Below are positions 1,943 through 26,354 of a DNA stretch of 58,765 nucleotides, piece after piece. How positions within the stretch are numbered: position 1 is the stretch's first letter; each line of letters opens with the position of its first letter. The notes under the pieces are model-generated. The model worked only from the letters and a program-made list of their open reading frames with translations. It ran no database searches and was not told the origin of the DNA. The DNA comes from an uncultured Eubacteriales bacterium (GTDB taxonomy: Bacteria; Bacillota; Clostridia; Oscillospirales; Acutalibacteraceae): the NCBI GenBank assembly GCA_964634675.1, contig CAZWLH010000001.1, positions 1-58,765 of the forward strand. Direction: 5' to 3'. A program made the position numbers and the translations under genes.

Positions 1943-2063
1943 AATTTTTACCTCCGAAGAAAAAAATATTGAATTCTTCCGAAAATATGTTACAATAATT
2001 TTCAAAGAAATGCAGTATCTTTATTTCCGATGTTATTATACTTTTTTCCGAAGGGCTGATCAT

Positions 2064-6134: not shown

Positions 6135-6914
6135 ATGCCCGAAAAAGGTAACAATTCGGTTGAGGAGCAAAGAGCACGTCAGCGTGAGTTGATAGAAATG
6201 AAGCGGCAGAAAGAGGCATTCTCCGAGGATCCCGAGCATTATACGCCTGCCGAACAGCCTGCGGCCTATGTTCAGTCGACACGCAGTAAAATCGAAAACT
6301 TTTGGTATTACAGCAAGTTTGTTATAGGGTTTATATTTATCGTTGTCCTTATTTTGACGGTCGGCATCGTTCAGTGCACCGGCAGAACCGATTACGATAT
6401 GACCGTTGTAATGTACTTCAAGACCTATGCCGACAGCACTATGTCGGAAAATCTTGCCACCGTAGCCGAGCAGTATTGCGAGGATGTGAACGGTGACGGT
6501 GCGGTAGAGGTGCTTGTGGTCAATTGCTCTATTCCCGATGATAAACGTTTGAGCGACAGTGATGCGACCAACCGATTGCTCGGTCAGTTTCAGAATGATG
6601 AAGCCATCGTTTATATCGTCGACAAGGGTGCCTATGACGACCTCAAAAACTCATTCGGCGACGATTTTCTTTATTACGGCTTAAATCTTCCCGACCTTGA
6701 AGGCGCCGCCTTTAAGCTCAACGGAACGGTGTTTGACGCGGCCTTTGACACCGTCAGTGAAAATTACACCGCCAACTTCGATTATTACTTGCTGCGCCGT
6801 AATGTTTCCGAAAAATCGACCGCAAACAAGAAAGGCGTTGCAAAGCACATTTCAAATGCCGAAAAATTCATTAAAGCCGTCATCGCAGATCCGTATCTCG
6901 ACGGTGAAAAATAA
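6135..6914 (+). CDS. Hypothetical membrane-anchored protein
   Basis: 259-aa ORF with AAAGGAA RBS, one TM helix (FVIGFIFIVVLILTVGIV) and a TTGATA-17-TACAAT promoter upstream. No family recognised. Confidence 0.6.
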   Translation: MPEKGNNSVEEQRARQRELIEMKRQKEAFSEDPEHYTPAEQPAAYVQSTRSKIENFWYYSKFVIGFIFIVVLILTVGIVQCTGRTDYDMTVVMYFKTYADSTMSENLATVAEQYCEDVNGDGAVEVLVVNCSIPDDKRLSDSDATNRLLGQFQNDEAIVYIVDKGAYDDLKNSFGDDFLYYGLNLPDLEGAAFKLNGTVFDAAFDTVSENYTANFDYYLLRRNVSEKSTANKKGVAKHISNAEKFIKAVIADPYLDGEK

Positions 6915-6950: not shown

Positions 6951-7027
6951 CCGCTCGTAGCGAAGCCGGATATCGCAGCAGATTCCGATTCTGAAGGACG
7001 GGGGTTCGAATCCCTCCGAGCGGGCCA
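6951..7027 (+). tRNA. tRNA-Arg (anticodon CCG), CCA encoded
   Basis: Manual cloverleaf. The acceptor CCGCTCG/CGAGCGG has 7 perfect bp and the D stem GCGA/TCGC carries a GG loop. The anticodon loop is TT-CCG-AT. The T arm is GGGGG-TTCGAAT-CCCTC, followed by G-CCA. The C1-G72 first pair is atypical. Confidence 0.8.
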
Positions 7028-7030
7028 AAA

Positions 7031-7062
7031 TCGGCAAGCTTCGAAAGAAGCTTGCCGATTTT
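7031..7062 (+). terminator. Rho-independent terminator after tRNA-Arg
   Basis: TCGGCAAGCTTC-gaaa-GAAGCTTGCCGA perfect 12-bp stem followed by TTTT. Confidence 0.85.
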
Positions 7063-7195
7063 ACTTTTTATCTCTTCAGTTTTCTCTGCGAAGCTTGTTT
7101 ATCAGGTAATAAGTAATAGTTTATAGTGAAGAAAGATTTTGCAATGCTCTGATCAATGATTATCACCAAACACCCTCAGCGCGTGATTTAGTTAC

Positions 7196-7232
7196 AAAAA
7201 CAGCCCGAGTCGAACGAATCGACCCGGGCTGT
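7196..7232 (-). terminator. Rho-independent terminator of the 13-kb ABC operon
   Basis: 13-bp stem (CAGCCCGGGTCGA / TCGACTCGGGCTG on the minus strand) followed by TTTTT. The single non-Watson-Crick pair is G-U on the minus strand but A-C on the plus strand. Confidence 0.8.
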
Positions 7233-7243
7233 TTGCTTAATTA

Positions 7244-8650
7244 TCAGTTGTAATTCTGTCTGTCGGAGTTGAGCTTGTTGGTAACAAGTGTGTTGCAGCT
7301 GTCAACGATCTTGTTAACAGTGTTGGCGACAGAGTCAAGAGCGGTCTGAACACCTGCTGCGGGAGCAGACTTAATGGTGCTGTAGATCTTGTTCATATCC
7401 TCGCCTGCTACGGTTGCGGCAGCCTTATCAAAGTTGTGATATCTACCCTCTGCACCGAGGCTTGTGAGGTCATAGTAGAAGTTACCTGCATCGACAGTGA
7501 GGAAGGTGTTGTCAAGGTCATAATTGGCAGGGTCGAGCCAGTAACGGATGAAGTATCCTGCGGCATCGGCGTTTGGAGCCTTCTCAACAATACCGTACAT
7601 ACGAGGAATAGCGGACATCTTAGGCTTCTCGCCTTCCTCAAGAGACGGCAAATAGGTGTAACCGACATCCTCGGGATCCATATTCATAAAGTAACCTGTT
7701 GCCTTAAGTCCGTACGGTCCGCGGATAACGAGAGCGCACTTGCCGGAAGTGAAGGAGGAGAAGCTGCCGTCAAGGAGTCCCTGTTCCTTGGCATCTGCAT
7801 ACCACTGATAGCCCTCGAGCATAACCTTATCGGAGAGGCCGCTTGAGAATCTGCCGGTGTTGATGTCATACTTAACAACAGAAGTACCGAGAGAATCGAT
7901 AAAGATATCCTGTTCGACCAGCATACCCTTATAATCGGTGCCGAGCGACTTAACGTCCTTACAGCACTTAAGCGCATTGTCCCATGTCCATTTTCCCTGA
8001 GCATAGTACTCTTCGGGAGTGGTGAAGCCGTTTTCTTCAAAGAGTCTCTTGTTGTAGAAGGTAAGGTTACCGCCGGTCCAAGGAGTACCGATGGTGTTAA
8101 CCATATAAACGTTGCCTTCAATGGTGAAGCAATCGTTAAGACCGGTGTTCCAAATGGGCTCGTTGAGGTCAACGGTCGAAACTTTGTTGATGGGAGCCGC
8201 GATCTGAAGTGTTACGGGGAAGTTGCCGTCGCCTTCGTTGTTAACGAATACGTCGGGAATATCGCCGGCAGCAATCTTGGTCATAATCTGGCTGACATAG
8301 TTTTCCTGTGGAACGGTAAAGAGAGATACCTTAAGACCGGTATCATCATAGAAGCTGCTGAGCGGAACAGCACCTTCGGTGGTTGTATGATCGATCCAGG
8401 TTGCAAAACGAACTGTTGAGCCCTTAATGGAATCCGAAATTGTTGCATAGGGATCAAAGTTTTCATAACGGGTGCCTGCAGTGCTGACGGTAGGCGCAAT
8501 AACGGTCGTGGGCTTGGATTCACCCGTGCCGGTTGAAGCAACAGAACCGGTATCCTTCTTCTTTTCGTCACCGCCGCATGCGGTCATTACAAATACAAGC
8601 ATAAGTAAAGCCGCGGCTAAACACAATGCTCTTTTGATGCCGTTTTTCAT
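7244..8650 (-). CDS. ABC transporter extracellular solute-binding lipoprotein (carbohydrate, CUT1-like)
   Basis: 468 aa with signal peptide and lipobox (LVFVMTAC-GG). SBP family 1-like sequence with its own AGGAGG RBS. Confidence 0.9.
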   Translation of the reverse strand: MKNGIKRALCLAAALLMLVFVMTACGGDEKKKDTGSVASTGTGESKPTTVIAPTVSTAGTRYENFDPYATISDSIKGSTVRFATWIDHTTTEGAVPLSSFYDDTGLKVSLFTVPQENYVSQIMTKIAAGDIPDVFVNNEGDGNFPVTLQIAAPINKVSTVDLNEPIWNTGLNDCFTIEGNVYMVNTIGTPWTGGNLTFYNKRLFEENGFTTPEEYYAQGKWTWDNALKCCKDVKSLGTDYKGMLVEQDIFIDSLGTSVVKYDINTGRFSSGLSDKVMLEGYQWYADAKEQGLLDGSFSSFTSGKCALVIRGPYGLKATGYFMNMDPEDVGYTYLPSLEEGEKPKMSAIPRMYGIVEKAPNADAAGYFIRYWLDPANYDLDNTFLTVDAGNFYYDLTSLGAEGRYHNFDKAAATVAGEDMNKIYSTIKSAPAAGVQTALDSVANTVNKIVDSCNTLVTNKLNSDRQNYN

Positions 8651-8838
8651 AAAAATTCCTCCTAAAATATAATTGCAATATTACCGCAAAACCGACCCAT
8701 TTATATAATATGCACAAAATCAGGTAATAAATTGCCTAAACATATAATACAGAACAAACCGGATTGCAATAGGTTAGTGAAATTTTCCATCTAAAAAACT
8801 AAACAAATTTCAATCTGGTTTTTTAGCAATATTGACTG

Positions 8839-9846
8839 TTAGCCTGTTATACCGACACGGTCGATACTCTTAACGAACTTCTTCTGAAGTACCAAGTAAA
8901 CAATGAGTATCGGTATGATGAACATAAAGCAGCCTGCCATCATAATGGCAATTCTCAACGGGTCGCTGCCGTCGAGTCTCAAGGTACCCATAGCTTCGGG
9001 CGAGGTGATCTCGCTGAGCTTGACCGCGAGCGGCCAGCTGTCTGCATAGAGGTACATTGACGAAAGTGAATAGTCATTCCAATGCCAAATGAGCGAGAAG
9101 ACCGTTACGGTCGTAATAACAACGCCCGAGGAAGGAAGAGCAATTCTGATGTAGGTCTTGAGCGGGCCCGCACCGTCGATCCAAGCGGCCTCTTCAAGCT
9201 CCTTGGGAAGACCCTTAAAGAACTGAATGTAGATGTAAATGATGATACCCGAACGGATACCGACGCCGAGCACTGCCGGCAGATAGAATGTCCAAACGGA
9301 GTTGAGAACGTTGGGACGTATATCGATTCCGGTGAGCTTATTTATGAGTCCGAGCACGCCTAAGAAGTCGAGCTTTGAGTAGTTCATAAATATCGGCAGC
9401 ATCATCATCTGAGACGGAACGAGGATGAGAAGGAACATAAAGCCCGTCAATATCTTCTTTTCCTTGAACTCAAATCTTGCAAGTCCGTATGCAACAACAG
9501 AGCAGCTTATGATCTGAATACCGGCCGAAACCATTTCGTAAACAAGAGTATTAACGATGGCACTGCCGTATTTCATTATCGACCAGGCATACTTGAAGTT
9601 CTCAACGGTGAGGTCAGAGGTGATCCATACGATAGAGGGGTCATAGAAGGACTCTCTCGATCTGAACGCCGAGCTTATCATATAGAAAAGCGGATAAAGG
9701 ATTATGTATCCAATGGCGATAAGAACAACGTATCTAAGCAACGATACAAACACACTGTTACCCCTGCGGATAGCCTTATATCTTGTCTCGGTGCTTGCGT
9801 TTTTGAAGTTTATGACCCAATTCTTTATCTTAGTGACAATACTCAT
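8839..9846 (-). CDS. Carbohydrate ABC transporter permease (MalG-like)
   Basis: 335 aa, 6 TM, EAA-type loop (KELEEAAWIDGAGPLKTYIRIALP). Confidence 0.9.
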   Translation of the reverse strand: MSIVTKIKNWVINFKNASTETRYKAIRRGNSVFVSLLRYVVLIAIGYIILYPLFYMISSAFRSRESFYDPSIVWITSDLTVENFKYAWSIMKYGSAIVNTLVYEMVSAGIQIISCSVVAYGLARFEFKEKKILTGFMFLLILVPSQMMMLPIFMNYSKLDFLGVLGLINKLTGIDIRPNVLNSVWTFYLPAVLGVGIRSGIIIYIYIQFFKGLPKELEEAAWIDGAGPLKTYIRIALPSSGVVITTVTVFSLIWHWNDYSLSSMYLYADSWPLAVKLSEITSPEAMGTLRLDGSDPLRIAIMMAGCFMFIIPILIVYLVLQKKFVKSIDRVGITG

Positions 9847-10811
9847 CAGCTTCTACCTCCCGTATCCCAACGCTTTAAGAAAGCCTTGGAGATTATAAAC
9901 ATAAGGGCAGCCATGAATACGCCGATTACGATAAAGTAGATCCAAAGCATTGCAGATGCCTTGCCGTAGCTTTCTGCGGCACCCTGCATAAGCGTGTATG
10001 CCTGCGACATAACGATGTTATCCTTAGCAGTTACCAGCTCAACGATGGTGAAGATGATAACAAGGACAAGTGTTCTCGAAAGCATAGGAAGTGTGATGAA
10101 CCAGAACTCTTCCCACTTGGTTGCACCCTCAACCTTGGAAACCTCGTACATTGAGTCGGAGATCGACTGCATACCCGAGATAAAGAGAACTATCTGAATA
10201 CCGCAGTTCCAAATAAGGTTGAAAATGTCATTCAAAAGTCCCGTGAAGAAGGCACCGACCTTTGTCGGCAGAGCGAGCCAGGTCATAATATCCTCGACCT
10301 GGATCATATTTCCGGCAAAGGAGTCGGAAACACCGGAGGAAGAAAGCTCACTCGAGGTGGTCATAAAGAGAATCTGAATAACAACACCCGAAGCGATAAT
10401 AACGGGGAGGAAGTAAAGTCCTCTGAAGAAGATTCTGCCCTTGAACTTTTGGTTGAGCAAAAGTGCAAGAATAAGACTTATGATAACTATAACCGGCAAG
10501 GAGCCTGCCATCGAGCTCAACGATGCGAAAACGTTGTTCTGGAAATCGGCATTTTGGTTCCAAGCATAGTTGAAGTTCTTCAAGCCGGCATACTCAAAGT
10601 GGTATTCACCGCCCGAGAAGCTGACGTCGCAGAAGCCGTAATAGAACGACTGAAAAAGCGGAACCACGAAGAAGAGCAAAAGTCCGATTTCCCAATGGAG
10701 TACGAACAGGCGTCCGTAAGTGCTCTTAAGGGACTCGATACCTTTATGCTTCTTGTGCTTTTTGACGGCATTGGAGGGCGCCGTATTGGTTTTGATCTCA
10801 TCTGCTGTCAT
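9846..10811 (-). CDS. Sugar ABC transporter permease (MalF-like)
   Basis: 321 aa, polytopic, EAA-type loop (YEVSKVEGATKWEEFWFITLP). Confidence 0.9.
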   Translation of the reverse strand: MTADEIKTNTAPSNAVKKHKKHKGIESLKSTYGRLFVLHWEIGLLLFFVVPLFQSFYYGFCDVSFSGGEYHFEYAGLKNFNYAWNQNADFQNNVFASLSSMAGSLPVIVIISLILALLLNQKFKGRIFFRGLYFLPVIIASGVVIQILFMTTSSELSSSGVSDSFAGNMIQVEDIMTWLALPTKVGAFFTGLLNDIFNLIWNCGIQIVLFISGMQSISDSMYEVSKVEGATKWEEFWFITLPMLSRTLVLVIIFTIVELVTAKDNIVMSQAYTLMQGAAESYGKASAMLWIYFIVIGVFMAALMFIISKAFLKRWDTGGRS

Positions 10812-10814
10812 TAC

Positions 10815-13118
10815 TTACACCCCCTTTACCTGATAGCCGCGAGCCGCGACCGTTACATTACCGTCGGTGTAATCGGAGGTTCCGTAGTTAACATATACCG
10901 AAACTCCGTTATCGAAGGTAGTCAATCTTACATTTTCGTTGATGATCTTATGATCGGTTATCTTAGCGCCGCTGACCGAGTCAAAGTAGCTCTTATATCT
11001 GGCAACAGTGGCCTCAATATCGGTACGTACACCCTTTTCAATGGTTTCATTCCAGTAAACCGAGCCGTAGAACACATTCTGTGCGGCGGTGATGAGGTTG
11101 GTATCATACTCACCGACAAGTGTGTAGGTAAGGCCGCTGCCGCTTTCGACTGCCTTCAGAAGGGTCTCGGTCTTGTCGGTCGCAAGGTTGAGCGATGTGC
11201 CCGACATTGAAACGGCACCCTTGAAGACGATCTGATAGAACGGAACGTCGGCTGTTATGAATCTGTACTTTGAAGACTGATTGGGCGTATCATAAACATG
11301 TGTACAAAGTGCCGCCGCATAAGAGTTGGCATCGCTGCCTGCGACCTTATAACCGGAGGTCTTGTAGTTATTGATGATAGCACCGGTCTGATCGTCGGAA
11401 TTGGCTCTCGAGTAATACTGTCTGTCACTGTAATCGGAGTAAGCGATACTCGTCAGCGTGTCAAGGCTGATACCGGGGAGCTTCCAATCCTTAGCGGTCT
11501 CCTTGATATTTGCGGCAACCTCACTGAGCTTTGTGCGCGATACAAGGTAATACTCACGAAGCTTAGTGTCAGGTGTGCGAAGGCTCAACGAGAAATAGTT
11601 GAGCGCAGTGTAGCTTCCGTTAGCCGCATCGGCCTTGCCGAAGGCAGTGGAAACGCCGCCGCCCGATTCGCTGAAGCGAACCATATCAAAGTTGAAATAA
11701 AGGTTTGCGCCGTTTGAATTGCAGTACTTAATAAGTGCCGCAAGGTCGTCCTCATCACCGAATTCACTGTTGATGTCATAATCACCGGCGACGACACCGA
11801 TGTCGTTACCGTTCGAGCCGAAGCCGATGAGATTAACGTTGATGTTGTCAAGTCCGGTTCTGTTCTTGACATCCTCAACAATGGACTTGGCATCCTTAAG
11901 GGTCGTGGCGGCAAGCATCGCGGTGCTCGGAATACCGAAATGGAATTCCTTGGTCTCAATACCGCCGACAAGCTTAAGGTTGAGCAAAGAGTCATTTGAC
12001 TTTTCGGTATTGATGGCGTTGTTCTCGACAAGATAGTCACGGTAGGTCTTCGCCATACCGACATAGCTTGCCTCATCATCATAGAGAGGATAGAAGCCGA
12101 CCTTTATCTCGTCGGGAGTGAAGGCATCGGAGTAAAGCTTGGTCTTGACGATGGTCTGAGTGAAGAGGTTCTGAACGACCTCCTGATAGCCTCTGACTCT
12201 AAACTCGGTGCTGATGTATGAGTAGCCCGTGAGCTTCTGTGCGAGAGCGCCGGTGATGTAAGAATTTTCGGCACCGGATTTAATGATCGCACAAACAGCC
12301 TTGGCGCCGTTGACCGCACCGTAAACCGGCATTCTGACCGTCTCGGTGGGCATCTGATTTTCGAACTGAGTGATGTTGGCATCATGTCCGAAAACGGGAT
12401 CTTCAATGGTGATAGCCGCATCGCGGTTCTCATCCATTATCGGGTTGATAATCGCACCCGAGCCCGAAGGATAGAAGATGTAGTGGTCATCCGAGCTTGT
12501 ATTTGTGTTGGAGACCGAGCAGAAGAACGGAGCAATTATAATGCCGTAGACATTATAAGTTTCGCTTTCCTGTATTCTTGTGGGGTCAACCGAAATGTCA
12601 ACACCCTTGTCGGTCAAGGTAAAGGCAACGGGAACAGTGATCTCACGGTCGGGGAAATAACAGGTCATTTCCAAGCCATTTTCGATCTTTGTGACCGAGA
12701 AAGCCTTTTTGTTGATCGACATAGCCGAAGCGTTGGTCTGATCGGTCAAAAAGTTGGTGGTGTTGTAGTATTTTACGATGATCGGTGACTTGACAAGCGG
12801 ATGAACCGTTGCTGTTTCGCCCTTACCTTCGACCGAATAGTCGTAGGAATTGTTGAGCGACTCCTCGGGGATATAGCTCCACTCAAGGTCTTTTACCTTA
12901 TCGTAAAGGATGACCGTTGTCTTTTCAGCGTTCCAAATAAGACTGTAACGGCTGTTTTCAGCGACACTCGTTGTCTTGAGAACATCAAGCTGCTCAGGCT
13001 TCGAATAAGCCGACTCGGCAGCACGGTTAGGCTCGCCGCATCCCACTCCCAAAAGGAGGAGTGCTGAGCAAAGCAGTAAGCAAAGTGCCGATGAAATAAC
13101 GCGTTTTACTTTATTCAT
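10815..13118 (-). CDS. Large secreted lipoprotein of unknown function (possibly DUF5696-type)
   Basis: 767 aa with signal peptide and lipobox (LLLLGVGC-GE). No catalytic motif recognised. The DUF5696 suggestion is from memory of similar clusters and is not verified. Confidence 0.7.
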   Translation of the reverse strand: MNKVKRVISSALCLLLCSALLLLGVGCGEPNRAAESAYSKPEQLDVLKTTSVAENSRYSLIWNAEKTTVILYDKVKDLEWSYIPEESLNNSYDYSVEGKGETATVHPLVKSPIIVKYYNTTNFLTDQTNASAMSINKKAFSVTKIENGLEMTCYFPDREITVPVAFTLTDKGVDISVDPTRIQESETYNVYGIIIAPFFCSVSNTNTSSDDHYIFYPSGSGAIINPIMDENRDAAITIEDPVFGHDANITQFENQMPTETVRMPVYGAVNGAKAVCAIIKSGAENSYITGALAQKLTGYSYISTEFRVRGYQEVVQNLFTQTIVKTKLYSDAFTPDEIKVGFYPLYDDEASYVGMAKTYRDYLVENNAINTEKSNDSLLNLKLVGGIETKEFHFGIPSTAMLAATTLKDAKSIVEDVKNRTGLDNINVNLIGFGSNGNDIGVVAGDYDINSEFGDEDDLAALIKYCNSNGANLYFNFDMVRFSESGGGVSTAFGKADAANGSYTALNYFSLSLRTPDTKLREYYLVSRTKLSEVAANIKETAKDWKLPGISLDTLTSIAYSDYSDRQYYSRANSDDQTGAIINNYKTSGYKVAGSDANSYAAALCTHVYDTPNQSSKYRFITADVPFYQIVFKGAVSMSGTSLNLATDKTETLLKAVESGSGLTYTLVGEYDTNLITAAQNVFYGSVYWNETIEKGVRTDIEATVARYKSYFDSVSGAKITDHKIINENVRLTTFDNGVSVYVNYGTSDYTDGNVTVAARGYQVKGV

Positions 13119-13133
13119 AATTCTCCTCCTTTA

Positions 13134-15311
13134 TCAGAATAGTTTAAGAATTTCGGAATAGATAGTTGCGATGAATCCGCCGAGCTGCTGGAGCAGAATT
13201 CCGACTGCTATGAGCAGGAAGAGTATGACGGCACAACCCAAAAGTGTGAGCAAGGTGGTTCCGATGAACTTACCGAGCGTGTAATCGTGAACGATCATCG
13301 AGCCGGCGGCCAACATAATGACCGTGTACATTGTACAGATGGTAAGGAGAACCGACAGGAATGCGGCCTCATCGGGAACAAGAATGTTGGTGCAGACGAT
13401 GTAAACGACACTGCCCAAAAGTGACGGTATAAGGCTGTAGCTTATAACGGTGAGAATCTCTTTGATCTTACCCTTTCCGCCGAAGAGCGTACAAACAGCC
13501 CAGTTAGAAAGAGTCCAAAGAATGACGAGACCGGCCGTCTTGACAAGGATGAGCAATGCGTTATAGCTCGAAGGATCGAAGTAGGTGAACGCAAAGCCGC
13601 CCCAGGTCGTTTCGAGAACGTCGAAGACATAGTAAAGGAGAATAATCACAAGGCAAATGGGCACCGAGCAAAGATTCTTTTCCTTGATATCGTGGAAATT
13701 CTCGAACGGATGAGTGAGCATCGTTGTTGCCGCATGAAGCTTATCGTTCTTGACAAATCTCATCTTATGCTTGGTCGAGTAAACAAGCAACACAATAAGC
13801 CCGGCAATAAGGAGCACTGCGATGAGCAATACCCAGGTGAAGTTTTCACGCAACCACTCGGTTCTTATACTGTCGAAGGCGAGAGCATAGGTCTCACGGT
13901 CATAGCCCTGTTCCGCAAGCTCCAAAGCCTTTCTGATGTACTTCTCACCGAGAACGGGATCATCGTTGGTCTGACCCATAACGTAATAAGCCTTAGCAAG
14001 TCCGGCATAAGCGAACTGACAGTTACTGTCGGCACCGAGAACCTCTTCCCACTCTGCAACGGCATCTTCATAGTCACCGACCAAGGTCTTTGACTGAGCC
14101 GACTTAATGAGCTTACCGTGCTCGGTAATGTTGAAAACGGTGAGGGTCTGCTGGCTGTTATCGGTAACCGCAACTGCCTGAGTAAGCTTGTTATAGCTTA
14201 TCGAGCTGGGGTTATAGAAGGTACCGACCTGGTTACCGCCCTTAAGACCGCCGCCGAAGGCGGAAAGCATATTGCAGTCGTTATCATAGATATAAACACG
14301 GCCGTAATATGAGTCGATGATGTACATAAAACCGTCATCATCGGCCGCAATGCCTATAAAGTTCTGGACACGTGCGCTCTTATTTACGGGATCAAGTCCT
14401 ATCTCTTCCTCATCGAAAGAGACATCCTCGGAATCGAGAATATTGCTTCCGCCGGGATTAAGGCGCTTGACCTGCCCTTTTTGGAGAGCACTACCGGTAA
14501 CGGTATAAACGAAGCCTTCGGAATCGACCCAAAGGTCATTGAAGGTGTAAGGCAAGGAACGGGTCATCTCGGCACGCTTTTCATTATTCATAAAAAGTCG
14601 GTTCCAAAGAGCGACCAACGCCTCGGTCACGGTCTGAGCAACGTCGTTCGAGCCGTAGAAGCCGAGGAAAACATCATCAGGCGAATAAAGGATAGCGCCG
14701 TAGTAAGAACCGTTGCTGAGGATATAAACATAACCCTTATGGTCAACGGCAACCTTGATAGGCTGATACTTGAAATCGGTGGGGATAACGTGCGAATCGG
14801 GAAGAGTATAAACTCTTATGAGCTTGCCCTCTGCATCGCACTTGAGAACACGCGCGTTTTGAGTATCGGCAATGAAAACATTTTCGTACTCGTCAACGAA
14901 GATACCCTTTGCTTTGTTGAAGTAGTATCTTACGTCGTTTTCACCGGTGACATAAGAAAATCCGCCGATATTGTTGTAATCCTTATCGAGAATAATAACT
15001 CTCGAAGCACCGCCGTCCAAAACATAGGTGTAACCGGTCACATTGGACACGTGGGTATCCTCAATGGTGGAGGCCGCGGTGCAGCCGAGATCCTGCGAGG
15101 TGAAAACCTTGCCGACCTCGTACATCGGCTTTGTGGGAACTACACGGCGTGTCTGACCGGTGAAGTTTTCCCAAAAGGTGTAAGACTCATAACCGATCTC
15201 ATCGGTCTTTTCGGAAACGGCGGCGACCGACTTTCCCGAAAGAAGCATGAGAACTGCCAAGGTGCAAACGGCAATTCGGGTAAGGAGTCTGCGAATTTTA
15301 ACGTTTTTCAT
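13134..15311 (-). CDS. Signal peptide + six NHL-like beta-propeller blades + TPR + C-terminal Yip1-like 5-TM domain fusion protein
   Basis: Start set at ATG 15311 (MKNVKIRRLL, GGAGG 8 nt upstream). Repeated blade motifs include VFIADTQNARVLK, GYVYILSNGSYYG, GFVYTVTGS, GFMYIIDSYYGRVYIYD and VAVTDNSQQTLTVF. A TPR-like segment (GDYEDAVAEWEEVL...AYAGLAKAYYVMG) follows, then six hydrophobic helices. Confidence 0.7.
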   Translation of the reverse strand: MKNVKIRRLLTRIAVCTLAVLMLLSGKSVAAVSEKTDEIGYESYTFWENFTGQTRRVVPTKPMYEVGKVFTSQDLGCTAASTIEDTHVSNVTGYTYVLDGGASRVIILDKDYNNIGGFSYVTGENDVRYYFNKAKGIFVDEYENVFIADTQNARVLKCDAEGKLIRVYTLPDSHVIPTDFKYQPIKVAVDHKGYVYILSNGSYYGAILYSPDDVFLGFYGSNDVAQTVTEALVALWNRLFMNNEKRAEMTRSLPYTFNDLWVDSEGFVYTVTGSALQKGQVKRLNPGGSNILDSEDVSFDEEEIGLDPVNKSARVQNFIGIAADDDGFMYIIDSYYGRVYIYDNDCNMLSAFGGGLKGGNQVGTFYNPSSISYNKLTQAVAVTDNSQQTLTVFNITEHGKLIKSAQSKTLVGDYEDAVAEWEEVLGADSNCQFAYAGLAKAYYVMGQTNDDPVLGEKYIRKALELAEQGYDRETYALAFDSIRTEWLRENFTWVLLIAVLLIAGLIVLLVYSTKHKMRFVKNDKLHAATTMLTHPFENFHDIKEKNLCSVPICLVIILLYYVFDVLETTWGGFAFTYFDPSSYNALLILVKTAGLVILWTLSNWAVCTLFGGKGKIKEILTVISYSLIPSLLGSVVYIVCTNILVPDEAAFLSVLLTICTMYTVIMLAAGSMIVHDYTLGKFIGTTLLTLLGCAVILFLLIAVGILLQQLGGFIATIYSEILKLF

Positions 15312-15324
15312 TATTCGTTCCTCC

Positions 15325-16281
15325 TTATTCCTTAATACCGGCACTGCTCATGGATTCCATAACGTTGCTCTGCGAAATCATATAAACAACGATAGGCGGA
15401 ATCATAAGAATACAGGTAACAGCCATTGCACTACCCGAACGGGCGATACCGCCTGCGGTGATCTGTCCCATAATGGTAGGCAGCGTTTTGAGAGCCTCGC
15501 TGAAAATCGTACCGCCGGGAACTGCAGCCCAAACATCACGGAAGGTGAAAAGGACAAGTGTCAGCCACATCGGCTTGACGATCGGCATAACGATTCTCCA
15601 GAAAATTCTGAAATATCCGGCACCGTCGATCTTTGCGGCTTCAAGCAGTGCGTTGGGGAGAGCTCCCTCCATATACTGCTTCATAAGGAAGACGCCCATG
15701 GTCGAAGCGAAGTGCGGCAGGATATATACCCAATATGTATCGATAATGTTGATACCAGTATATATAATGTAACGAGGAATATCAAGTGTATATCCGTTAA
15801 AGAGAAGCGAGAACTGAATAATGTAGAAAATGGTTTTCTTGAACTTGATGTTCGACTTGCAGAGAACGAAGGCGGCCATCGAAGCAATGACAACATAGAG
15901 GAAGGTCGTTGTCAAGGTCGTGAACAAGCTGTTGAAAACGTATCTCGAAAGCGGAATACGAAGGTTGGACAAAAGCTCGGGCAATGCCGCATAGTTGGCA
16001 AGAGTCGGACGGTGAACGAAGAAGCGCGGCGGGAAGATCATAATTTCATCCAACGGCTTCAAGGATGTACAAATCGAATAGATAAGCGGCAGGATCGAAA
16101 TACAGCCTGCGGCTATGATAAAGAAGAAGTAGAAGAAGTTGCCGACCTTAGAGCGTGTATAACGCTTGGCCTCGGACTTGGACGAACGTCTGCGCTTGGG
16201 CGCTTTCATATCGTTGACCGAGTCGCGCAGTGCCTTGGCACCGCTCGGCAAAATCAGCTCTTCCTGTTTTTTTCTGAACAT
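15325..16281 (-). CDS. Carbohydrate ABC transporter permease (MalG-like)
   Basis: 318 aa, EAA loop (LLEAAKIDGAGYFRIFWRIVMP). Confidence 0.9.
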   Translation of the reverse strand: MFRKKQEELILPSGAKALRDSVNDMKAPKRRRSSKSEAKRYTRSKVGNFFYFFFIIAAGCISILPLIYSICTSLKPLDEIMIFPPRFFVHRPTLANYAALPELLSNLRIPLSRYVFNSLFTTLTTTFLYVVIASMAAFVLCKSNIKFKKTIFYIIQFSLLFNGYTLDIPRYIIYTGINIIDTYWVYILPHFASTMGVFLMKQYMEGALPNALLEAAKIDGAGYFRIFWRIVMPIVKPMWLTLVLFTFRDVWAAVPGGTIFSEALKTLPTIMGQITAGGIARSGSAMAVTCILMIPPIVVYMISQSNVMESMSSAGIKE

Positions 16282-16296
16282 TGACTTCCCACCTCC

Positions 16297-17214
16297 TTAC
16301 TTTCCTGTCATATTGAGCAGCTTACCGATGAGCAATCGGAAGACGACCATCATCAGGAACAGAATGACCGCAACAGCCGAAGCGTATCCGAGCTCATAAC
16401 GTACCGTACCGAGATCCTGCATATGAGATACTATCGTATCGGCCGCATAGCTGACACTCGGGAAACCGGCAAGCTGAATGGCGATCGCACTTATCGAAAA
16501 TGCACTCGAAATCTGCATGACCGCACTGAAAAGAAGCATATGCTTCATGGTCGGGAGGGTTATGTACCAAAGCTCCTGCCAACGGTTTCTGATACCGTCG
16601 ATAGAGCCGGCCTCATAAAGCTCCTGATTGATATTCTGAAGACCGGAAATGTTGGAAAGGAACGAAACACCCATACTCGACCAAAGCTGAACTGCAATGA
16701 CGATCGGCTTGATGTACTCGGCGGTCGAGAGCCATGTGACAGGCTCGGTGATAAGTCCGAGAGAAAGAAGCGCACTGTTAACGTAGCCGTAGCTATCGCT
16801 CGAGAAAGCGACCTGCCAAATGAAATATGCATTACCGACAAGGGCCGGAGCATAGAACATAAAGGAAAGCAGTGTACGGACAAGGGGTGAAAATTCGTTG
16901 ATGAACCATGCCAAAACGAAGGACATAAAGAATCCGACAGGTCCGCAGATTATAGCGAAGAGCATAGTGTTCTTGAAGACGACGGGGAAAACGTCGTCAT
17001 CAAGGAACATTCTTAGGTAGTTACCGAGTCCCGCAAAGGTCGGTGTGTTGATCATATCGAAGTTCGTAAAGCTCAGAACTATTGAAGAGAGAATGGGCAA
17101 TACGAGGAATATGACGAAGAAAATGAAGAACGGAGCAAGCATAATGTAGGACGGAAGCTGTTCCTGGAGCATTGCTTTGCGTCGGATCTTTTTATAATTT
17201 ATCTGATTTTCCAT
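16297..17214 (-). CDS. Sugar ABC transporter permease (MalF-like)
   Basis: 305 aa, EAA loop (LYEAGSIDGIRNRWQELWYITLP). Confidence 0.9.
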   Translation of the reverse strand: MENQINYKKIRRKAMLQEQLPSYIMLAPFFIFFVIFLVLPILSSIVLSFTNFDMINTPTFAGLGNYLRMFLDDDVFPVVFKNTMLFAIICGPVGFFMSFVLAWFINEFSPLVRTLLSFMFYAPALVGNAYFIWQVAFSSDSYGYVNSALLSLGLITEPVTWLSTAEYIKPIVIAVQLWSSMGVSFLSNISGLQNINQELYEAGSIDGIRNRWQELWYITLPTMKHMLLFSAVMQISSAFSISAIAIQLAGFPSVSYAADTIVSHMQDLGTVRYELGYASAVAVILFLMMVVFRLLIGKLLNMTGK

Positions 17215-17231
17215 TATTACTCTCTCCCTCC

Positions 17232-20200
17232 TTACTTAATTTTTGCGTATTCCGCAATCTTACGTGCAATCTCGTTGTCGGCGACCTCGCCCCACTCGAG
17301 CATTGCGTCTTTTTCGTTGTCCTCACCGTTGAGAACTGCCCAATATGCCTGGTCGATGGCACGGGATACATAGTATCCGCCGGGGAGCTCGGGGAGCTCT
17401 TCGACCTCAGACCACTGATTGAGAAGTATCTCAAGATCGTCGGCATTCCATGAATAGGAGCTGAATGCCTCGATGTTGGCGGTAGCGGTACGGGATACTG
17501 CGCCGAGGATAGACTCAACGTTGTTGTTGTATCTGAGCTGAGTATCGGCGGCGGTCCACCAGCAGAGGAACTGCCAAGCCTCATCCTTATTGGAGGAGCG
17601 CTTTACAACACCGCAACCGGTTCCCGAGCCTGCGATCGAACGGTCAATTGTTCCGTCCTCCTGCATAGTACCGGGAATAGCACATATCTTCCAACGTCCC
17701 TGAATTTCGGGAGCGGCCTGTGTCAACTGTGTATAGGTGGTGTAACCGGCAATTCCCAAAGGAGCGGTACCGGTACGGAAACGGTTATAGAAGTCGATCT
17801 GCTTCTCAATACCGTACTTGGTGTAAAGGTCTGTCCACTTGGTGAAAGCGGAAATTGCTTCACTCGATGTGAGATTGGTCTTGGTGCGTGCATCGTTATA
17901 AAGCTGAACACCGTTCTGAGTCAGGAAGGTGCCGAACAAGTGGAGACTTCCCATACCGGCGTTGACCGTAGTGGTCGAAGCGATCTTGGTATAAGGAATG
18001 TAAGCATCCATATTGTTACGCTGGAGGATGGTTGCCGCATCGAGATAATCGTCCCAGGTCCAACCGAGTCCGTTATTGGCTTCGGTAGGCTCGGCAATTC
18101 CGAGACGTTCGAAGACATCGGTACGGTAGAACATTATAAAGAAGGACTGAGTATCGGGCAAAGCGAAGAGCTGATCGTGGTCGGTGGTTCCGTCATTATA
18201 ATAATAAGGAGTGGCGGCCGACGGCTGGAAGCGCTTCAGGACGGTCTCATAATCGAGAAGATATGTCGAGCCGTCATCGACGGTGGAATACTTGGGATCC
18301 TTTGCCGCCGAGAAGTTGGTCAAATCGTAAAGTGCGCCACGCATACCGAGGTTGACCGGGTCGGTACGGTTAAGGTGCAGCGAAAGGTCGGGATAGTTAC
18401 CGGCAAGAAGACCGTTGACGAGCGAAGCGCTGACAATCTCGAGCTGAACGCCTATTCCGGTCTCATATGTGAACGAGTCCTGAATGAGGTTGCTGAGAAC
18501 CTGTGCCTGGTCACGTCCCCAGTTGACCCAAATTCTCACACTGCCCTTGGCATCTGCGGCAACCGAGCCGCCGATAGAAGTGAAGTCATCGGAGAAGGAA
18601 GCAAAGAAACGCTTGCAGCTGAAGGAAAGCGACTCACCGAAGGAGGCGGTGTTATCCTTGAAGCCCTTCGAAGGAGAAGCCAACTGCATCTGATCGATGT
18701 TGAGCGGCATGGTCTTCATTTCATAGAGCCATGAGCAAACCGTGGTGTAGTTCGAATAGTAGTCGGAAATGTAGTTCTGTGCGGTATACTGATTGTCATA
18801 CATTTCCTTCAATACACGGGCCATATTGTTAAGAGCCGAAATGTACTTACTGCTACGGTCACCCGAGAGAGCTTTCATATCGGAGGAAAGCTTCGTAAGG
18901 TCATTGTAGCAGGAAAGCAAGGTCTCCTGGAAGTTGGGTATCTGTCTGAACAGTTCATAGTCACGGTTTTTATCGGGGGAGTCACTTGTTATCATAATGA
19001 TATCCATATAGGTATCACCGATAACATCGACTATCTCGCTGAGTCTTGAATAGAACTCGGCGGTTTCACCCAAGGTGACTGTGAGGGTAAAGATATGGGT
19101 ACCGGCCTTGAGGAAGAACTTGTAAGGAGCCTTACCGCTGCCGAGCTGCTTGAACTCCCAGCTTGTGCAGTAGTCAAAACGAAGGTTCTTACACTCCTCG
19201 AAGGGCACCTCGCCGTCAATTGCAAGCGAACGGTAGGTAAAGCCGTCGATTATGGTCGCCTGCTTGTAATTAAGACCGAAGGTGTAAAGTCCGTCTTCGG
19301 GGACCGTTACCTTCCAGGTAAGGCTTTCGCCCGGAACCTGCCAGTTGGTCGAGCCGATGTAGTTGAGTATCGACTTAACGGGGCTGTGCGGTGTGATATC
19401 GGGCGAGCTGTTGTCCGACTTGGAGATAAGTGAGTTGGTAGACTTAAGCCAAGCATCCTCACCCTCGAATTCGATAGCGGTACCGGTATAATCGGCAACA
19501 CCCGAGTTGGATGCGGCATAATCCTCGTAAGAGGGGGTTGCGGTAGGTGCCTTCAGTATAATACTTGCAAGGGCGAAGGGCTCATAAACCGACTTAACAG
19601 TGATTTTGTGGGTACCTGCCGTGAGCAGAATCTTGTAGGGGTCGGCAACGACACCTACGGGGTCGACGGCATACTTGGTCACAAACTCACCGTACTCGGC
19701 CTGCTCGGGAGTGAGCTGGTTGCCGAGAGTATCAACACGGATGTTGCCGACCGGATTTTCATAGGTCGAGCCGTTGTTGACAAACATACGGGGAAGCGAC
19801 AGAGCATCAATACCGCTGTAAAGGGTCTTGCCGTCGATCATAACACCGAGCTGTATCGGGCTGGTGCTCTTCTTATCGTCGGAGTCATCTGCGTTACCGC
19901 CGGTCTTATCAAGAGGGAGATAAGTAAAGGCAAGGTTGTAGATGCCGTCCTCGGGAACGTTCACCTCATAGGTGATGCTTCCCTGCTGCTGGAAGGCTTT
20001 ATTGTCCCTCCAAACAAGACATTCCTGCGAAGTCTTCTTCTGATTGACCTCGTCGGTCAATACTTCATAAAGCTCCTTCGAGAGAACGCTTACCGTGCCG
20101 TCTGCACCGACATATTCGCAACCCTCGGCAGTGTAATTGAAGATATCCAATGCGATATCCTTTTTAGCATAGCCGTACTGTGCGATCGATGCAAGATACC

Positions 20201-20369
20201 TTTCATATTCGGCAGATGCGTCGGAGCCGGACGTTGTATTGCCCGAAGAACCCGCGGAGCCTGCGGTGTCGGGTGCCTCGGTCGCGGAAGCGACGGGCAG
20301 AGCAAAAAGCGACACGGCGAGCACGGTCACGAGAACAACGGCCAACATTCGGATTTTACCAGAATTCAT
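17232..20369 (-). CDS. Giant ABC solute-binding protein with two N-terminal CBM-like modules
   Basis: Start set at ATG 20369 (MNSGKIRMLAVVLV..., AAGGTG RBS), giving 1045 aa with a signal peptide. There are two internal repeats (see findings) and a C-terminal ~430-aa SBP family 1-like domain. Confidence 0.85.
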   Translation of the reverse strand: MNSGKIRMLAVVLVTVLAVSLFALPVASATEAPDTAGSAGSSGNTTSGSDASAEYERYLASIAQYGYAKKDIALDIFNYTAEGCEYVGADGTVSVLSKELYEVLTDEVNQKKTSQECLVWRDNKAFQQQGSITYEVNVPEDGIYNLAFTYLPLDKTGGNADDSDDKKSTSPIQLGVMIDGKTLYSGIDALSLPRMFVNNGSTYENPVGNIRVDTLGNQLTPEQAEYGEFVTKYAVDPVGVVADPYKILLTAGTHKITVKSVYEPFALASIILKAPTATPSYEDYAASNSGVADYTGTAIEFEGEDAWLKSTNSLISKSDNSSPDITPHSPVKSILNYIGSTNWQVPGESLTWKVTVPEDGLYTFGLNYKQATIIDGFTYRSLAIDGEVPFEECKNLRFDYCTSWEFKQLGSGKAPYKFFLKAGTHIFTLTVTLGETAEFYSRLSEIVDVIGDTYMDIIMITSDSPDKNRDYELFRQIPNFQETLLSCYNDLTKLSSDMKALSGDRSSKYISALNNMARVLKEMYDNQYTAQNYISDYYSNYTTVCSWLYEMKTMPLNIDQMQLASPSKGFKDNTASFGESLSFSCKRFFASFSDDFTSIGGSVAADAKGSVRIWVNWGRDQAQVLSNLIQDSFTYETGIGVQLEIVSASLVNGLLAGNYPDLSLHLNRTDPVNLGMRGALYDLTNFSAAKDPKYSTVDDGSTYLLDYETVLKRFQPSAATPYYYNDGTTDHDQLFALPDTQSFFIMFYRTDVFERLGIAEPTEANNGLGWTWDDYLDAATILQRNNMDAYIPYTKIASTTTVNAGMGSLHLFGTFLTQNGVQLYNDARTKTNLTSSEAISAFTKWTDLYTKYGIEKQIDFYNRFRTGTAPLGIAGYTTYTQLTQAAPEIQGRWKICAIPGTMQEDGTIDRSIAGSGTGCGVVKRSSNKDEAWQFLCWWTAADTQLRYNNNVESILGAVSRTATANIEAFSSYSWNADDLEILLNQWSEVEELPELPGGYYVSRAIDQAYWAVLNGEDNEKDAMLEWGEVADNEIARKIAEYAKIK

Positions 20370-20469
20370 TTCTTCACCTTCAAAACTAAGATTTAAACAG
20401 CGCCCCTTGCAAGAGCAACAAAGCGGGTTTTGCAGACAAAGTCCCACTCTGCATTATGTTCTGTGTACT

Positions 20470-20498
20470 ATTATCCTACAAACGCTCCGTTTTGTCAA
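20470..20498 (-). promoter_or_regulatory. Sigma-70-type promoter of the 13-kb ABC operon
   Basis: On the minus strand: TTGACA (20498-20493), 17 nt, GATAAT (20475-20470). This implies a ~95-nt leader before ATG 20369. Confidence 0.55.
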
Positions 20499-20771
20499 TA
20501 ACCATTTGTCAAATTTTCACTAAATTCCCTTAATTTTTTTAAAATTTTGTACCAACGCCTATATGCAATATTACTTTTAAACCGTTTAAATTAAGCTTTT
20601 TGTTGTCAATTTGCACAACATCTCCAGTGAAATCCTCGCCCGATGATGAGTGAAATATGAAGAATTTACATAAAACTCACGAAAACTTATTTAAAAACCT
20701 GTCCTTTTACAGCTTATATATATTATGTAAGCTCCGATTTAATGCTGGCAGTGCAATATACCCAAGAGCTA

Positions 20772-20800
20772 TTGACATATCTTTACTGCCGATGTATACT
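20772..20800 (+). promoter_or_regulatory. Sigma-70-type promoter of the lipoprotein gene
   Basis: TTGACA (20772-20777), 17 nt, TATACT (20795-20800). Confidence 0.5.
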
Positions 20801-20865
20801 TTTATCGGTGCAGCCGCACCTATTATTTAACGCCTGACACAGCTTAGGCAGAATGGATCATTATT

Positions 20866-21387
20866 ATGAAAAAAATTGCGGCACTTTTACTCTGTATGGT
20901 TTTACTTCTTTCCTTTGCGGCCTGCGGCGGCGGTTCGAGCGACACCGACGATAAGGATACCGTCAGCACCTCGAGCAAAGCAAACAAGAACGATGACAAG
21001 AGCAACGGCAAAAAGGACGATAAAGAGGATGACAAATCCGAAATTTCGATAACTCTTCCTTCGACCGATGCCGAAAAGGAGATCCAAAAGGCAATCGACG
21101 CCATCAAACCCGAGCTTGACGAGATGAAGGATACCTATGCCGAGCTCGGCCTCAGCGTTGACGTTGAAGCCCGAAACACCGCTTTTGTCTATGTTTTCCG
21201 CTACACTATCGACATTCCCGATGTTAATGCCGTAAAAGAAGCACTTGACGAATCCTTCGACGGTCTCGAGGATACATACCTGTCCATTTTGAGCACCTTT
21301 AAAGCCGAGTGCCCCTCTATCAAGTCGATCGTTCTCGAGTATCAGGCGAAGGACGGCACGGTCATCACCTCTCACGAGTACAAATAA
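20866..21387 (+). CDS. Hypothetical lipoprotein
   Basis: 173 aa with lipobox LLSFAAC-GG and an acidic/lysine-rich linker before a small globular domain. Confidence 0.7.
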   Translation: MKKIAALLLCMVLLLSFAACGGGSSDTDDKDTVSTSSKANKNDDKSNGKKDDKEDDKSEISITLPSTDAEKEIQKAIDAIKPELDEMKDTYAELGLSVDVEARNTAFVYVFRYTIDIPDVNAVKEALDESFDGLEDTYLSILSTFKAECPSIKSIVLEYQAKDGTVITSHEYK

Positions 21388-21401
21388 GCTTATACAAATC
21401 G

Positions 21402-21433
21402 AAAGAGCTTCGGGTGTCCGAAGCTCTTTTTTT
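21402..21433. terminator. Bidirectional terminator between convergent genes
   Basis: AAAGAGCTTCGG-gtgt-CCGAAGCTCTTT perfect 12-bp stem followed by a T-run. Confidence 0.8.
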
Positions 21434-21446
21434 ATCAAAATTCAGC

Positions 21447-22838: not shown

Positions 22839-22839
22839 A

Positions 22840-25015: not shown

Positions 25016-25027
25016 ATAAAAATCTCC

Positions 25028-26110: not shown

Positions 26111-26111
26111 A

Positions 26112-26294
26112 CTACTGTTCCTTTATTATCTGTTTAATATTTTTTTCGGCCTTATGTCTCGGCACCATTACCTCGTGTCCGCAGCCCGTACAGCGGAGCT
26201 TAAAATCCATACCCGAGCGCAAAACATAAAAAGTATTGCTTCCGCAGGGGTGTTGCTTTTTCATTATCAGCTTATCTCCGACCGAAACATCCAT
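26112..26294 (-). CDS. DUF951 family small zinc-ribbon-like protein
   Basis: 60 aa: [67 protein letters not shown] lies 8 nt upstream of ATG 26294. The 200-aa ORF in the track is an upstream extension across a terminator. Confidence 0.75.
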
Positions 26295-26318
26295 AAAAAA
26301 CGCTCCTTCAATAGACAT

Positions 26319-26354
26319 AAAAAAGGATATGGCGACCCGACGGACACCATATCC
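26319..26354 (-). terminator. Rho-independent terminator after jag
   Basis: On the minus strand: GGATATGG...CCATATCC 8-bp stem followed by TTTTTT. Confidence 0.7.

Follow-up and report, generated by a model that had tools for sequence, protein, structure and literature searches.

ATP-binding cassette (ABC) importers of the CUT1 class (MalEFG and MsmEFG, with the shared ATPases MsmK, MsmX and UgpC) combine MalE-like solute-binding proteins (SBPs) with MalF/MalG-type permeases that carry EAA loops. Their ATPase is usually encoded elsewhere, and the lack of an ATPase gene nearby is the norm for Firmicutes with a shared ATPase. Firmicutes are major degraders of fibre in the gut and rumen, and their capture of glycans at the cell surface is poorly understood compared with the Sus systems of Bacteroidota. 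Gram-positive polysaccharide utilisation loci (gpPULs) are defined by the presence of one or more enzymes that degrade polysaccharides, a system for carbohydrate transport and a regulator of transcription (Sheridan et al. 2016, PMC5320581). Here we analysed a 58.8-kb stretch of DNA (contig CAZWLH010000001.1, hereafter the window) from an uncultured Eubacteriales bacterium of the Acutalibacteraceae, in which eight consecutive open reading frames (ORFs) on the minus strand (7244-20369) encode two SBPs, four permeases, a fusion of NHL, TPR and Yip1 domains, and a lipoprotein of the DUF5696 family. The region is a real operon and one copy of a widespread gene cassette of Gram-positive bacteria from gut and soil. 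The cassette is undescribed and is most likely a glycan utilisation system based on ABC importers, with a fixed, novel accessory architecture. We consider it probable that the operon encodes a self-contained Gram-positive surface machine for the capture, cleavage and import of a glycan, driven by a shared ATPase of the CUT1 class whose gene lies elsewhere.

The operon had been proposed in an initial annotation, and its eight genes, promoter, terminator and intergenic gaps were all recomputed identically. In the ORF listing of the window the eight genes have one promoter on their 5' side and one terminator on their 3' side, and the gaps, taken from the most plausible starts, are 17, 15, 13, 15, 3, -1 and 188 nt, so that the first seven genes, the core, are separated by no more than 17 nt. 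From the gaps, together with the single promoter and the single terminator, we infer that the eight genes are co-transcribed. Profile hidden Markov model (HMM) searches confirmed the expected families, with SBP_bac_1/8 in two proteins, BPD_transp_1 in four, Yip1 together with an NHL-type propeller in one, and DUF5696 in one.

The cassette was then followed across genomes. A DUF5696 profile scan of one genome per GTDB species gave 344 relatives, of which the best 80 loci (L001-L080) were examined; these belong to Acutalibacteraceae, Oscillospiraceae, Ruminococcaceae and unclassified Clostridia metagenome-assembled genomes (MAGs) that stem from the guts of ruminants, rabbits, chickens and humans. 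The core, in the order SBP1, permease 1a, permease 1b, NHL-Yip1, DUF5696, permease 2a, permease 2b, was complete, collinear and co-oriented in 72 loci. The remaining eight were cut by contig ends and were consistent with this order, leaving zero exceptions, and the synteny held down to 32% DUF5696 identity. The same order was found in Paenibacillus xylanexedens, in Haloplasma contractile, in a Lachnospiraceae MAG, on the megaplasmid pNP243 of Butyrivibrio fibrisolvens D1T and on a replicon of P. cellulosilyticus. The invariant unit is thus seven genes, encoding one giant SBP, four permeases, NHL-TPR-Yip1 and DUF5696. This census of 80 loci and five distant organisms bore out both the earlier remark that genes of the Yip1 and DUF5696 families neighbour ABC permeases elsewhere in Firmicutes and the proposal of one conserved functional unit. 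Several MAGs held two to three divergent copies of the cassette; multiple divergent copies per genome are typical of polysaccharide utilisation systems.

Like CUT1 importers, the cassette encodes MalE-like SBPs and MalF/MalG-type permeases, and the EAA-type loop that couples permease to ATPase was present in all four permeases (two above the Pfam BPD_transp_1 cut-off and two just below it). All features of the operon lie on the minus strand. Permease 1a (16297-17214, 305 residues, MalF/UgpA-like) scored 38 bits for BPD_transp_1, matched UgpA/GlcT-like NCBIfam models and carries the EAA-type loop EAGSIDG, and permease 1b (15325-16281, 318 residues, MalG/UgpE-like) matched UgpE/GlcU-like NCBIfam models and has the canonical loop EAAKIDGAG. 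In the second pair, permease 2a (9846-10811, 321 residues) scored 23.7 bits, under the Pfam cut-off, with MalG/UgpA/MalF-like NCBIfam matches and a degenerate loop, EVSKVEGA, while permease 2b (8839-9846, 335 residues) scored 48 bits and has the canonical loop EAAWIDGAG. Permeases 2a and 1a were approximately 35% identical over 49 residues, and 2b and 1b were 22% identical. At 22-35% identity over partial alignments, the two pairs are, as judged from their sequences, ancient and distinct, and we rejected both a recent duplication of the importer module and the earlier description of the modules as duplicated. The cassette therefore differs from CUT1 importers in having four permeases of two ancient lineages in one operon. 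Across the 80 loci, median identity to the window proteins was highest for permease pair 1 (67% for both 1a and 1b), followed by pair 2 (49-53%), SBP1 (45%), NHL-Yip1 (42%) and DUF5696 (35%). Such constraint on pair 1 across paralogous cassettes is unusual for a substrate-specific importer.

A second difference from CUT1 importers lies in SBP1 (17232-20369, 1045 residues), which lacks a lipid anchor and contains a helical bundle as well as two domains resembling carbohydrate-binding modules (CBMs). The Pfam SBP_bac_8/1 match is confined to residues ~630-945, and Pfam searches with three N-terminal segments found nothing in the first 600 residues. An AlphaFold2 model (predicted local distance difference test score, pLDDT, 85) placed an N-terminal hydrophobic helix and a disordered Ser/Gly/Thr linker in residues 1-50, followed by two CBM6/35-like beta-sandwiches (residues 72-273, nt 19551-20156, and residues 299-432, nt 19074-19475), a helical bundle (residues 436-593) and a MalE-like oligosaccharide-binding domain (residues ~600-1045, nt 17235-18572). 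This last domain was matched by Foldseek to SBPs for sophoro-oligosaccharides, cycloalternan and cellodextrins and to MalE3 (E ~1e-17), which together with the permease loops agrees with the characters of CUT1 importers that have cluster B SBPs. SBP1 homologues gave matches just below threshold to CBM_6 in sandwich 1 and to CBM_35 in sandwich 2, and it is on these near-threshold matches and on the modelled fold that the CBM-like label of the sandwiches rests. SBP1 is a non-lipoprotein: a lipobox was found in 9 of 120 homologues, and the window protein has no Cys in its first 60 residues.

The eighth gene encodes SBP2 (7244-8650, 468 residues), a lipoprotein with Pfam SBP_bac_1/8 matches and the lipobox MTAC (Cys25). 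A close SBP2 homologue was found within 10 kb in 41 of the 80 loci, and the gene was truly absent on some contigs running well past the cassette (L082, L002, L003). SBP2 is therefore an optional component, and a pair of complete importers is not what the cassette conserves. In this respect too the cassette departs from CUT1 importers, in that the second SBP is optional while NHL-TPR, Yip1 and DUF5696 are obligatory.

The initial annotation had counted two extracytoplasmic proteins of unassigned role between the permease pairs. One of them, NHL-TPR-Yip1 (13134-15311, 725 residues), is not simply extracytoplasmic; it is a polytopic protein of the membrane whose propeller lies outside. It begins with a signal or anchor, followed by a six-bladed external NHL propeller (residues ~45-410, nt 14082-15179), TPRs (residues ~411-490), a transmembrane helix (residues 492-512) and a five-helix transmembrane Yip1 domain (residues 531-698, nt 13218-13721); hydropathy likewise placed a cluster of transmembrane segments at residues ~547-705. 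The Yip1 match (PF04893) covered profile positions 3-170 of 173 with 54.5 bits (cut-off 28.6). The propeller gave NHL/SGL matches in Pfam, and sequence matches in the PDB were to NHL propellers (TRIM71, the PknD sensor) and to consensus TPRs. In P. xylanexedens, Haloplasma, Butyrivibrio and the Lachnospiraceae MAG, NHL-TPR and Yip1 each have a gene of their own, one next to the other; in P. cellulosilyticus they are fused, as in the window. This pattern of fusion in some lineages and fission in others indicates that the two parts work together. A described precedent is YknW, a Yip1-family protein of Bacillus that modulates assembly of the ABC transporter YknXYZ (PMC4887032). In both cases a Yip1 membrane protein is encoded within an ABC transporter operon and is needed alongside the transporter. 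However, YknYZ is a MacB-type exporter of a peptide toxin, whereas the cassette encodes type I sugar importers, and its Yip1 domain has an NHL propeller and TPR arm, both external, joined to it by fusion or encoded next to it.

The DUF5696 lipoprotein (10815-13118, 767 residues) is the sole enzyme candidate in the window copy. It matched PF18952 over 609 of 612 profile positions at E = 9e-128, with 427.8 bits (cut-off 25.6), and all 32 aligned homologues matched the family too. It has the lipobox GVGC (Cys27); 119 of 120 homologues have a Cys in the N-terminal region. The family is large, with 5574 clusters at 50% identity in public data (E<=1e-3). An AlphaFold2 model built on the 32 homologues (pLDDT 88.8, predicted TM-score 0.89; the true residue number is the alignment or model number + 1) consisted of an N-terminal beta-sandwich (residues ~50-346), a (beta/alpha)8 barrel (residues ~379-716, nt 10971-11984) and a C-terminal beta-sandwich (residues ~720-765). 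The top Foldseek match in the PDB was a 3,6-anhydro-D-galactosidase of glycoside hydrolase (GH) family 129 (5opq, E = 1.5e-33) and the second was the GH129 alpha-N-acetylgalactosaminidase NagBb (5wzn, E = 2e-24, TM-score 0.72), followed by GH101 endo-alpha-N-acetylgalactosaminidases (E ~1e-19) and then by GH36 alpha-galactosidases and GH31. TM-scores were 0.66-0.72 (target-normalised up to 0.72) at 9-14% sequence identity, and the matched families all contain retaining alpha-glycosidases. The modelled protein therefore has the three-domain architecture and (beta/alpha)8 barrel of the GH129/GH101 and GH36/GH31 superfamily, and we regard DUF5696 as a predicted GH129/GH101-like glycosidase. It differs from GH129 and GH101 in being a lipoprotein built into a transporter operon, at 9-14% identity and with no HMM match: the window protein gave neither a Pfam Glyco_hydro_129 or Glyco_hydro_101 match nor a PDB sequence match. 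Because this sequence evidence is missing despite the fold, DUF5696 should not be filed as a member of GH129 or GH101. The earlier statement that the operon has no recognisable glycosidase thus stands for sequence HMMs but not for fold, where the model matches GH129, GH101, GH36 and GH31 (best E = 1.5e-33).

We examined residues within the barrel in the 32 clostridial homologues, which range down to 33% identity. Asp562, Asn598 and Glu658 were present in 32 of 32. Position 478 was Asp in 31 and Glu in one, position 624 was Asp in 29, Glu in two and Ser in one, position 596 was Asp or Glu in 25 of 32, and Tyr560 was invariant or nearly so. The spacing of the candidate residues Asp562, position 596 and Asp624 presumably resembles that of GH101. 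HMM alignments of the Paenibacillus and Haloplasma DUF5696 proteins, which are 21-24% identical, were too divergent to judge catalytic residues and were set aside for that purpose.

Genes beside other copies of the cassette extend the comparison with gpPULs. A recognised glycosidase gene lay within 10 kb in 38 of the 80 loci. A GH16-like lipoprotein adjoined the cassette in 31 loci, a large secreted GH16/dockerin protein was present in 15, and a GH36 alpha-galactosidase was encoded directly downstream in eight; GH2 was found in nine, GH3 in five and GH63-like proteins in six. AraC-type regulators were found in eight loci by a BLAST census and in 21 by looser clustering. Thirteen loci, all in the window's own subclade, encode a giant surface protein with Flg_new and CBM_4_9 domains, and in L086 the full order is AraC, GH16, SBP1, two permeases, NHL-TPR-Yip1, DUF5696, two permeases, SBP2 and giant surface protein. 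The Butyrivibrio copy is accompanied by a histidine kinase, a response regulator and GH43, and the P. xylanexedens copy by GH43 proteins and by a histidine kinase with a sensor SBP and an AraC-type response regulator. The GH16-type lipoprotein (~490 residues) is mostly encoded just upstream of SBP1 on the same strand (L016-L075; for example L029:1374-2834 and L086:3725-5221), and is not encoded beside the window copy.

In its proposed working the cassette is akin to a CUT1 importer set within a Gram-positive PUL. It resembles gpPULs in linking a candidate surface enzyme to ABC transport, in the AraC or two-component regulators and glycoside hydrolases that accompany other copies, and in its multiple divergent copies. 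It differs in that gpPULs have a loose, content-based definition with no fixed architecture, whereas the cassette has a rigid seven-gene core across Bacillota classes. Other copies fall within the gpPUL definition. The window copy encodes the transport system, lacks the regulator, and has as its only enzyme candidate DUF5696 with its predicted glycosidase fold; its description as a bare locus is accurate for this copy but not for those that carry regulators and extra glycosidases. The absence of an ATPase and a regulator from the operon itself was upheld by an ABC motif scan and by Pfam. A Walker A plus LSGGQ motif scan found no ABC ATPase encoded in the whole 58.8-kb window, and an ABC ATPase motif scan found none within 10 kb of the 80 related loci. 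One homologous cassette does follow ugpC: in P. cellulosilyticus a ugpC-type ATPase gene lies directly 5' of SBP1 on the same strand, the one direct hint to the ATPase that powers the system. That copy (L089, NZ_CP054609.1, 3648-25271) is the only one seen with an ATPase gene in the operon.

Cassettes of this kind may be compared with the Sus-like utilisomes of Bacteroidota, in which SusCD, surface glycan-binding proteins and glycosidases couple surface capture and cleavage to import. The same logic is proposed for the cassette, which has likewise diversified into many paralogues. The two have no homologous component in common, and the cassette operates without an outer membrane, SusC or SusD; no TonB-dependent receptor or SusD family member was found by Pfam among the eight proteins or in the flanks.

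How such a surface machine might work can be sketched from the folds of its parts. SBP1, presumably held at the membrane, would grip a polymeric or large oligomeric glycan through its two CBM6/35-like sandwiches, and the membrane-tethered DUF5696 protein, with its retaining alpha-glycosidase fold, would cut or trim the captured glycan, so that the MalE-like domain of SBP1 could trap the oligosaccharide set free. The NHL propeller and TPR arm would project from the Yip1 membrane domain, and NHL-TPR-Yip1 would act as an organiser that, in the manner of YknW, holds together the enzyme, the non-lipidated SBP1 and the permeases. The two different CUT1-type permease dimers would import two classes of product, with SBP2, where present, serving the second dimer, and a shared ATPase of MsmK/UgpC type, with its gene elsewhere in the genome, would supply the energy. 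The folds, and the genes found beside the cassette in other genomes, agree with a role in surface capture and processing. What we infer beyond this is that DUF5696 is catalytic, that the SBP1 sandwiches bind glycan, that NHL-TPR-Yip1 is an organiser, that products of two classes are imported and which ATPase is used.

Several observations weigh against this proposal. No sequence link was found between DUF5696 and any glycoside hydrolase: a Pfam search of the 32 homologues at E<=10 gave one Glyco_hydro_129 match (E = 0.11), single-sequence and profile searches of the PDB with DUF5696 gave nothing relevant, and hhalign comparison of the DUF5696 profile with a GH36 alignment built from neighbouring genes gave a probability of 0.1%. 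In far homologues the candidate nucleophile aligned to Asn (Haloplasma) and Asp478 was not kept, in alignments that are unreliable at 21-24% identity. The organising role of NHL-TPR-Yip1 is carried over purely by analogy with YknW. Finally, the window copy has no regulator, cytoplasmic glycosidase or ATPase nearby and fails the formal gpPUL definition. The hhalign GH36 alignment was also considered as a map of catalytic residues and was unusable, since it paired only the helix-strand segment ending in Asp478 with the 'VLDD' strand of GH36.

The leading alternative is that the seven core proteins form one physical assembly, in which permease pair 2 would lack a dedicated binding protein and take its product directly from DUF5696 or SBP1. 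The cassette would then be a Gram-positive equivalent of the utilisome and not a set of two ordinary importers. About half of the loci lack SBP2, whereas pair 2 is never lacking, and the genes for DUF5696, 2a and 2b are translationally coupled, with permease 2a starting 3 nt past the DUF5696 stop and 2a and 2b overlapping by 1 nt (gaps of 3 and -1 nt). A non-lipoprotein SBP1 would need a partner or anchor, the fusion and fission of NHL and Yip1 fit a common assembly, and pair 1 is under unusual constraint (median identity 67%, compared with 35-45% for the extracellular parts). However, a binding protein is a known requirement of type I ABC importers, and a second SBP could be encoded elsewhere, the census having covered close homologues of SBP2 only. 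We therefore consider a single assembly of this kind rather unlikely. The fuller form of the idea, in which Yip1 would organise both permease dimers, NHL and TPR would hold SBP1 and a DUF5696 protein founding a new GH family, and pair 2 would be fed without an SBP of its own, we likewise regard as rather unlikely.

Cleavage by DUF5696 is the step of the proposed capture, cleavage and import that a second alternative removes. Here DUF5696 would be a non-catalytic glycan-binding lipoprotein, a pseudo-enzyme comparable to SusE/F, and the cassette would import oligosaccharides made by other enzymes. This would agree with the lack of a sequence-level tie to any GH family, with an acid/base-equivalent position of GH101/GH129 that is only 78% acidic, with the candidate Asp residues not kept in HMM alignments of the Haloplasma and Paenibacillus proteins, and with the many copies accompanied by separate GH16-like lipoproteins or secreted GH16/dockerin proteins. 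Yet among the 32 clostridial homologues Asp562, Asn598 and Glu658 never vary and Asp478 and Asp624 hardly do, the full three-domain glycosidase architecture is kept in a confident model, and the window copy has no other candidate enzyme. On balance we think it improbable that DUF5696 is non-catalytic.

The nature of the glycan is questioned by a third alternative, that the cassette does not forage dietary polysaccharide but turns over or recycles envelope glycan, either the cell's own or that of neighbouring bacteria. The Haloplasma cassette adjoins NamZ, a glucosaminidase, SpoIID, a beta-lactamase-fold protein and GHL10, and beside the window copy there are no sugar-catabolic or regulatory genes, while a gene for an SLT transglycosylase lies 2.4 kb upstream of its promoter. 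That gene, however, is part of a separate housekeeping run (coaE, sua5), most of the informative neighbourhoods are of plant or dietary type (GH36, GH2, GH3, GH43, GH16 with dockerin, AraC), and genomes carry several divergent copies. We consider envelope recycling very unlikely. Chance adjacency of two unrelated importers and two unrelated surface proteins, for which only the 188-nt gap before SBP2 speaks, is effectively refuted by the synteny census, with the same order and orientation in 80 of 80 loci (8 contig-cut) and in distant lineages and with core gaps of 17 nt or less.

Downstream of the cassette in L089 are genes for four LLM-class flavin-dependent oxidoreductases, an NADPH-dependent oxidoreductase, aldo/keto reductases and two more SBPs, a set that we take to resemble monooxygenase pathways for organosulfonates or sulfo-sugars, so the glycan handled by this copy may be sulfonated or unusual in some other way. 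In Haloplasma contractile (L085, AFNU02000008.1, 1-22895), which we take to be a wall-less organism, the cassette lies amid genes related to peptidoglycan (GHL10, the beta-lactamase-fold protein, the glucosaminidase, SpoIID, NamZ and DUF624), a setting that suggests scavenging of other bacteria's cell-wall glycans by this copy.

The claim that the system is undescribed held up against the searchable literature. DUF5696 and PF18952 had no mention in the openly searchable literature, and no functional study of Yip1 with ABC, SBP or NHL components, or of pNP243, was found in searchable literature. A 2026 review of bacterial glycoside transporters leaves Yip1, NHL and DUF accessory proteins unmentioned, and RefSeq names the proteins only as 'NHL repeat-containing protein', 'YIP1 family protein' and 'DUF5696 domain-containing protein'. 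The cassette ranges over Oscillospirales, Lachnospiraceae, Paenibacillus and Haloplasma. If capture, cleavage and import are indeed its function, DUF5696 would probably be a new glycosidase family, bacterial Yip1 and NHL proteins would have a first role in sugar uptake, and the recurring, defined architecture would allow thousands of "hypothetical" operons to be annotated. The cassette is carried by culturable type strains, namely B. fibrisolvens D1T (WAA20_RS20505-20550) and P. cellulosilyticus KACC 14175.

The signals that bound the operon in the window are strong. A sigma-70-type promoter, TTGACA and GATAAT separated by 17 nt, lies at 20470-20498; identified as a consensus match (11 of 12 positions), it is the top minus-strand match between 6 and 22 kb. 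The SBP1 ATG at 20369, the most likely start, is preceded by the Shine-Dalgarno-like GAAGGAGAGG, with the codons down to it reading GAA GGA GAG GAA ATG, and the open frame extends to a GTG at 20447 (which would give 1071 residues). For NHL-Yip1 the most likely start is the ATG at 15311, in a frame that extends to a GTG at 15344. At the other end, an intrinsic terminator (7196-7232) forms the hairpin CAGCCCGGGUCGA-loop-UCGACUCGGGCUG followed by U5, with a folding energy of -29.5 kcal/mol (z = -7.96) that was equalled by 0 of 200 shuffles. The AT-rich 188-nt spacer between permease 2b and SBP2 (8651-8838) contains no minus-strand promoter-like or terminator-like site and no Rfam match, and its length varies from ~25 to 530 nt among related loci. 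An Rfam scan of 6.9-21 kb found tRNA only and no leader RNA at the promoter. A search for catabolite-responsive elements (cre, bound by CcpA) found none near the promoter, and their window-wide count was not above chance; a perfect, palindromic cre-like sequence, TGTAACCGGTCACA, lies within the NHL-Yip1 coding region at 15029-15042.

The genes on either side are unrelated to the operon. On one flank are genes for a tRNA-Arg(CCG), an ORF without assigned function and FeoB, and on the other a divergent DUF4854 gene followed by genes for an M18 aminopeptidase, SLT, coaE and sua5. The tRNA-Arg(CCG) gene (6951-7062, plus strand) has its own strong terminator (7027-7062), which converges on that of the cassette, and the 259-residue ORF between FeoB and the tRNA gene (6135-6914, plus strand) has no Pfam match. 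The DUF4854 gene (20772-21387, plus strand, 173 residues) has its own sigma-70-like promoter (11 of 12 positions) at 20772-20800, and an AT-rich intergenic region of ~500 nt is common to its promoter and that of the cassette. In relatives the DUF4854 gene is not kept beside the cassette, and an enolase gene lies upstream there. Pfam found no regulator between 6135 and 21387, inside or adjoining the operon.

The plus-strand GC skew flips sign between 7000-20500 and 20500-36000, although genes are all on the minus strand in both blocks. Cassette genes favour codons ending in C or T (C3 0.34-0.40, A3 0.10-0.15), as does FeoB, and their GC content at third codon positions (GC3) equals that of neighbouring genes. 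The skew is reversed because of this pyrimidine-ending codon bias, and, with GC3 equal to that of the neighbours and the same bias in FeoB, horizontal transfer was rejected. The pattern points to a codon-usage class of membrane, secreted or highly expressed genes and not to foreign DNA.

The AraC-like ORF nearest to the operon (~1755-2954) is set apart from it by FeoB, the 259-residue ORF and the tRNA gene. An AraC-like helix-turn-helix is encoded at ~2658-2936 (plus strand) inside this long ORF (1755-2954), which is divergent from genes for a GFO/IDH/MocA oxidoreductase and a xylose-isomerase-like TIM-barrel protein (132-2005, minus strand). Together, positions 132-2954 form a small catabolic unit of sugar or inositol type that is probably unrelated to the cassette.

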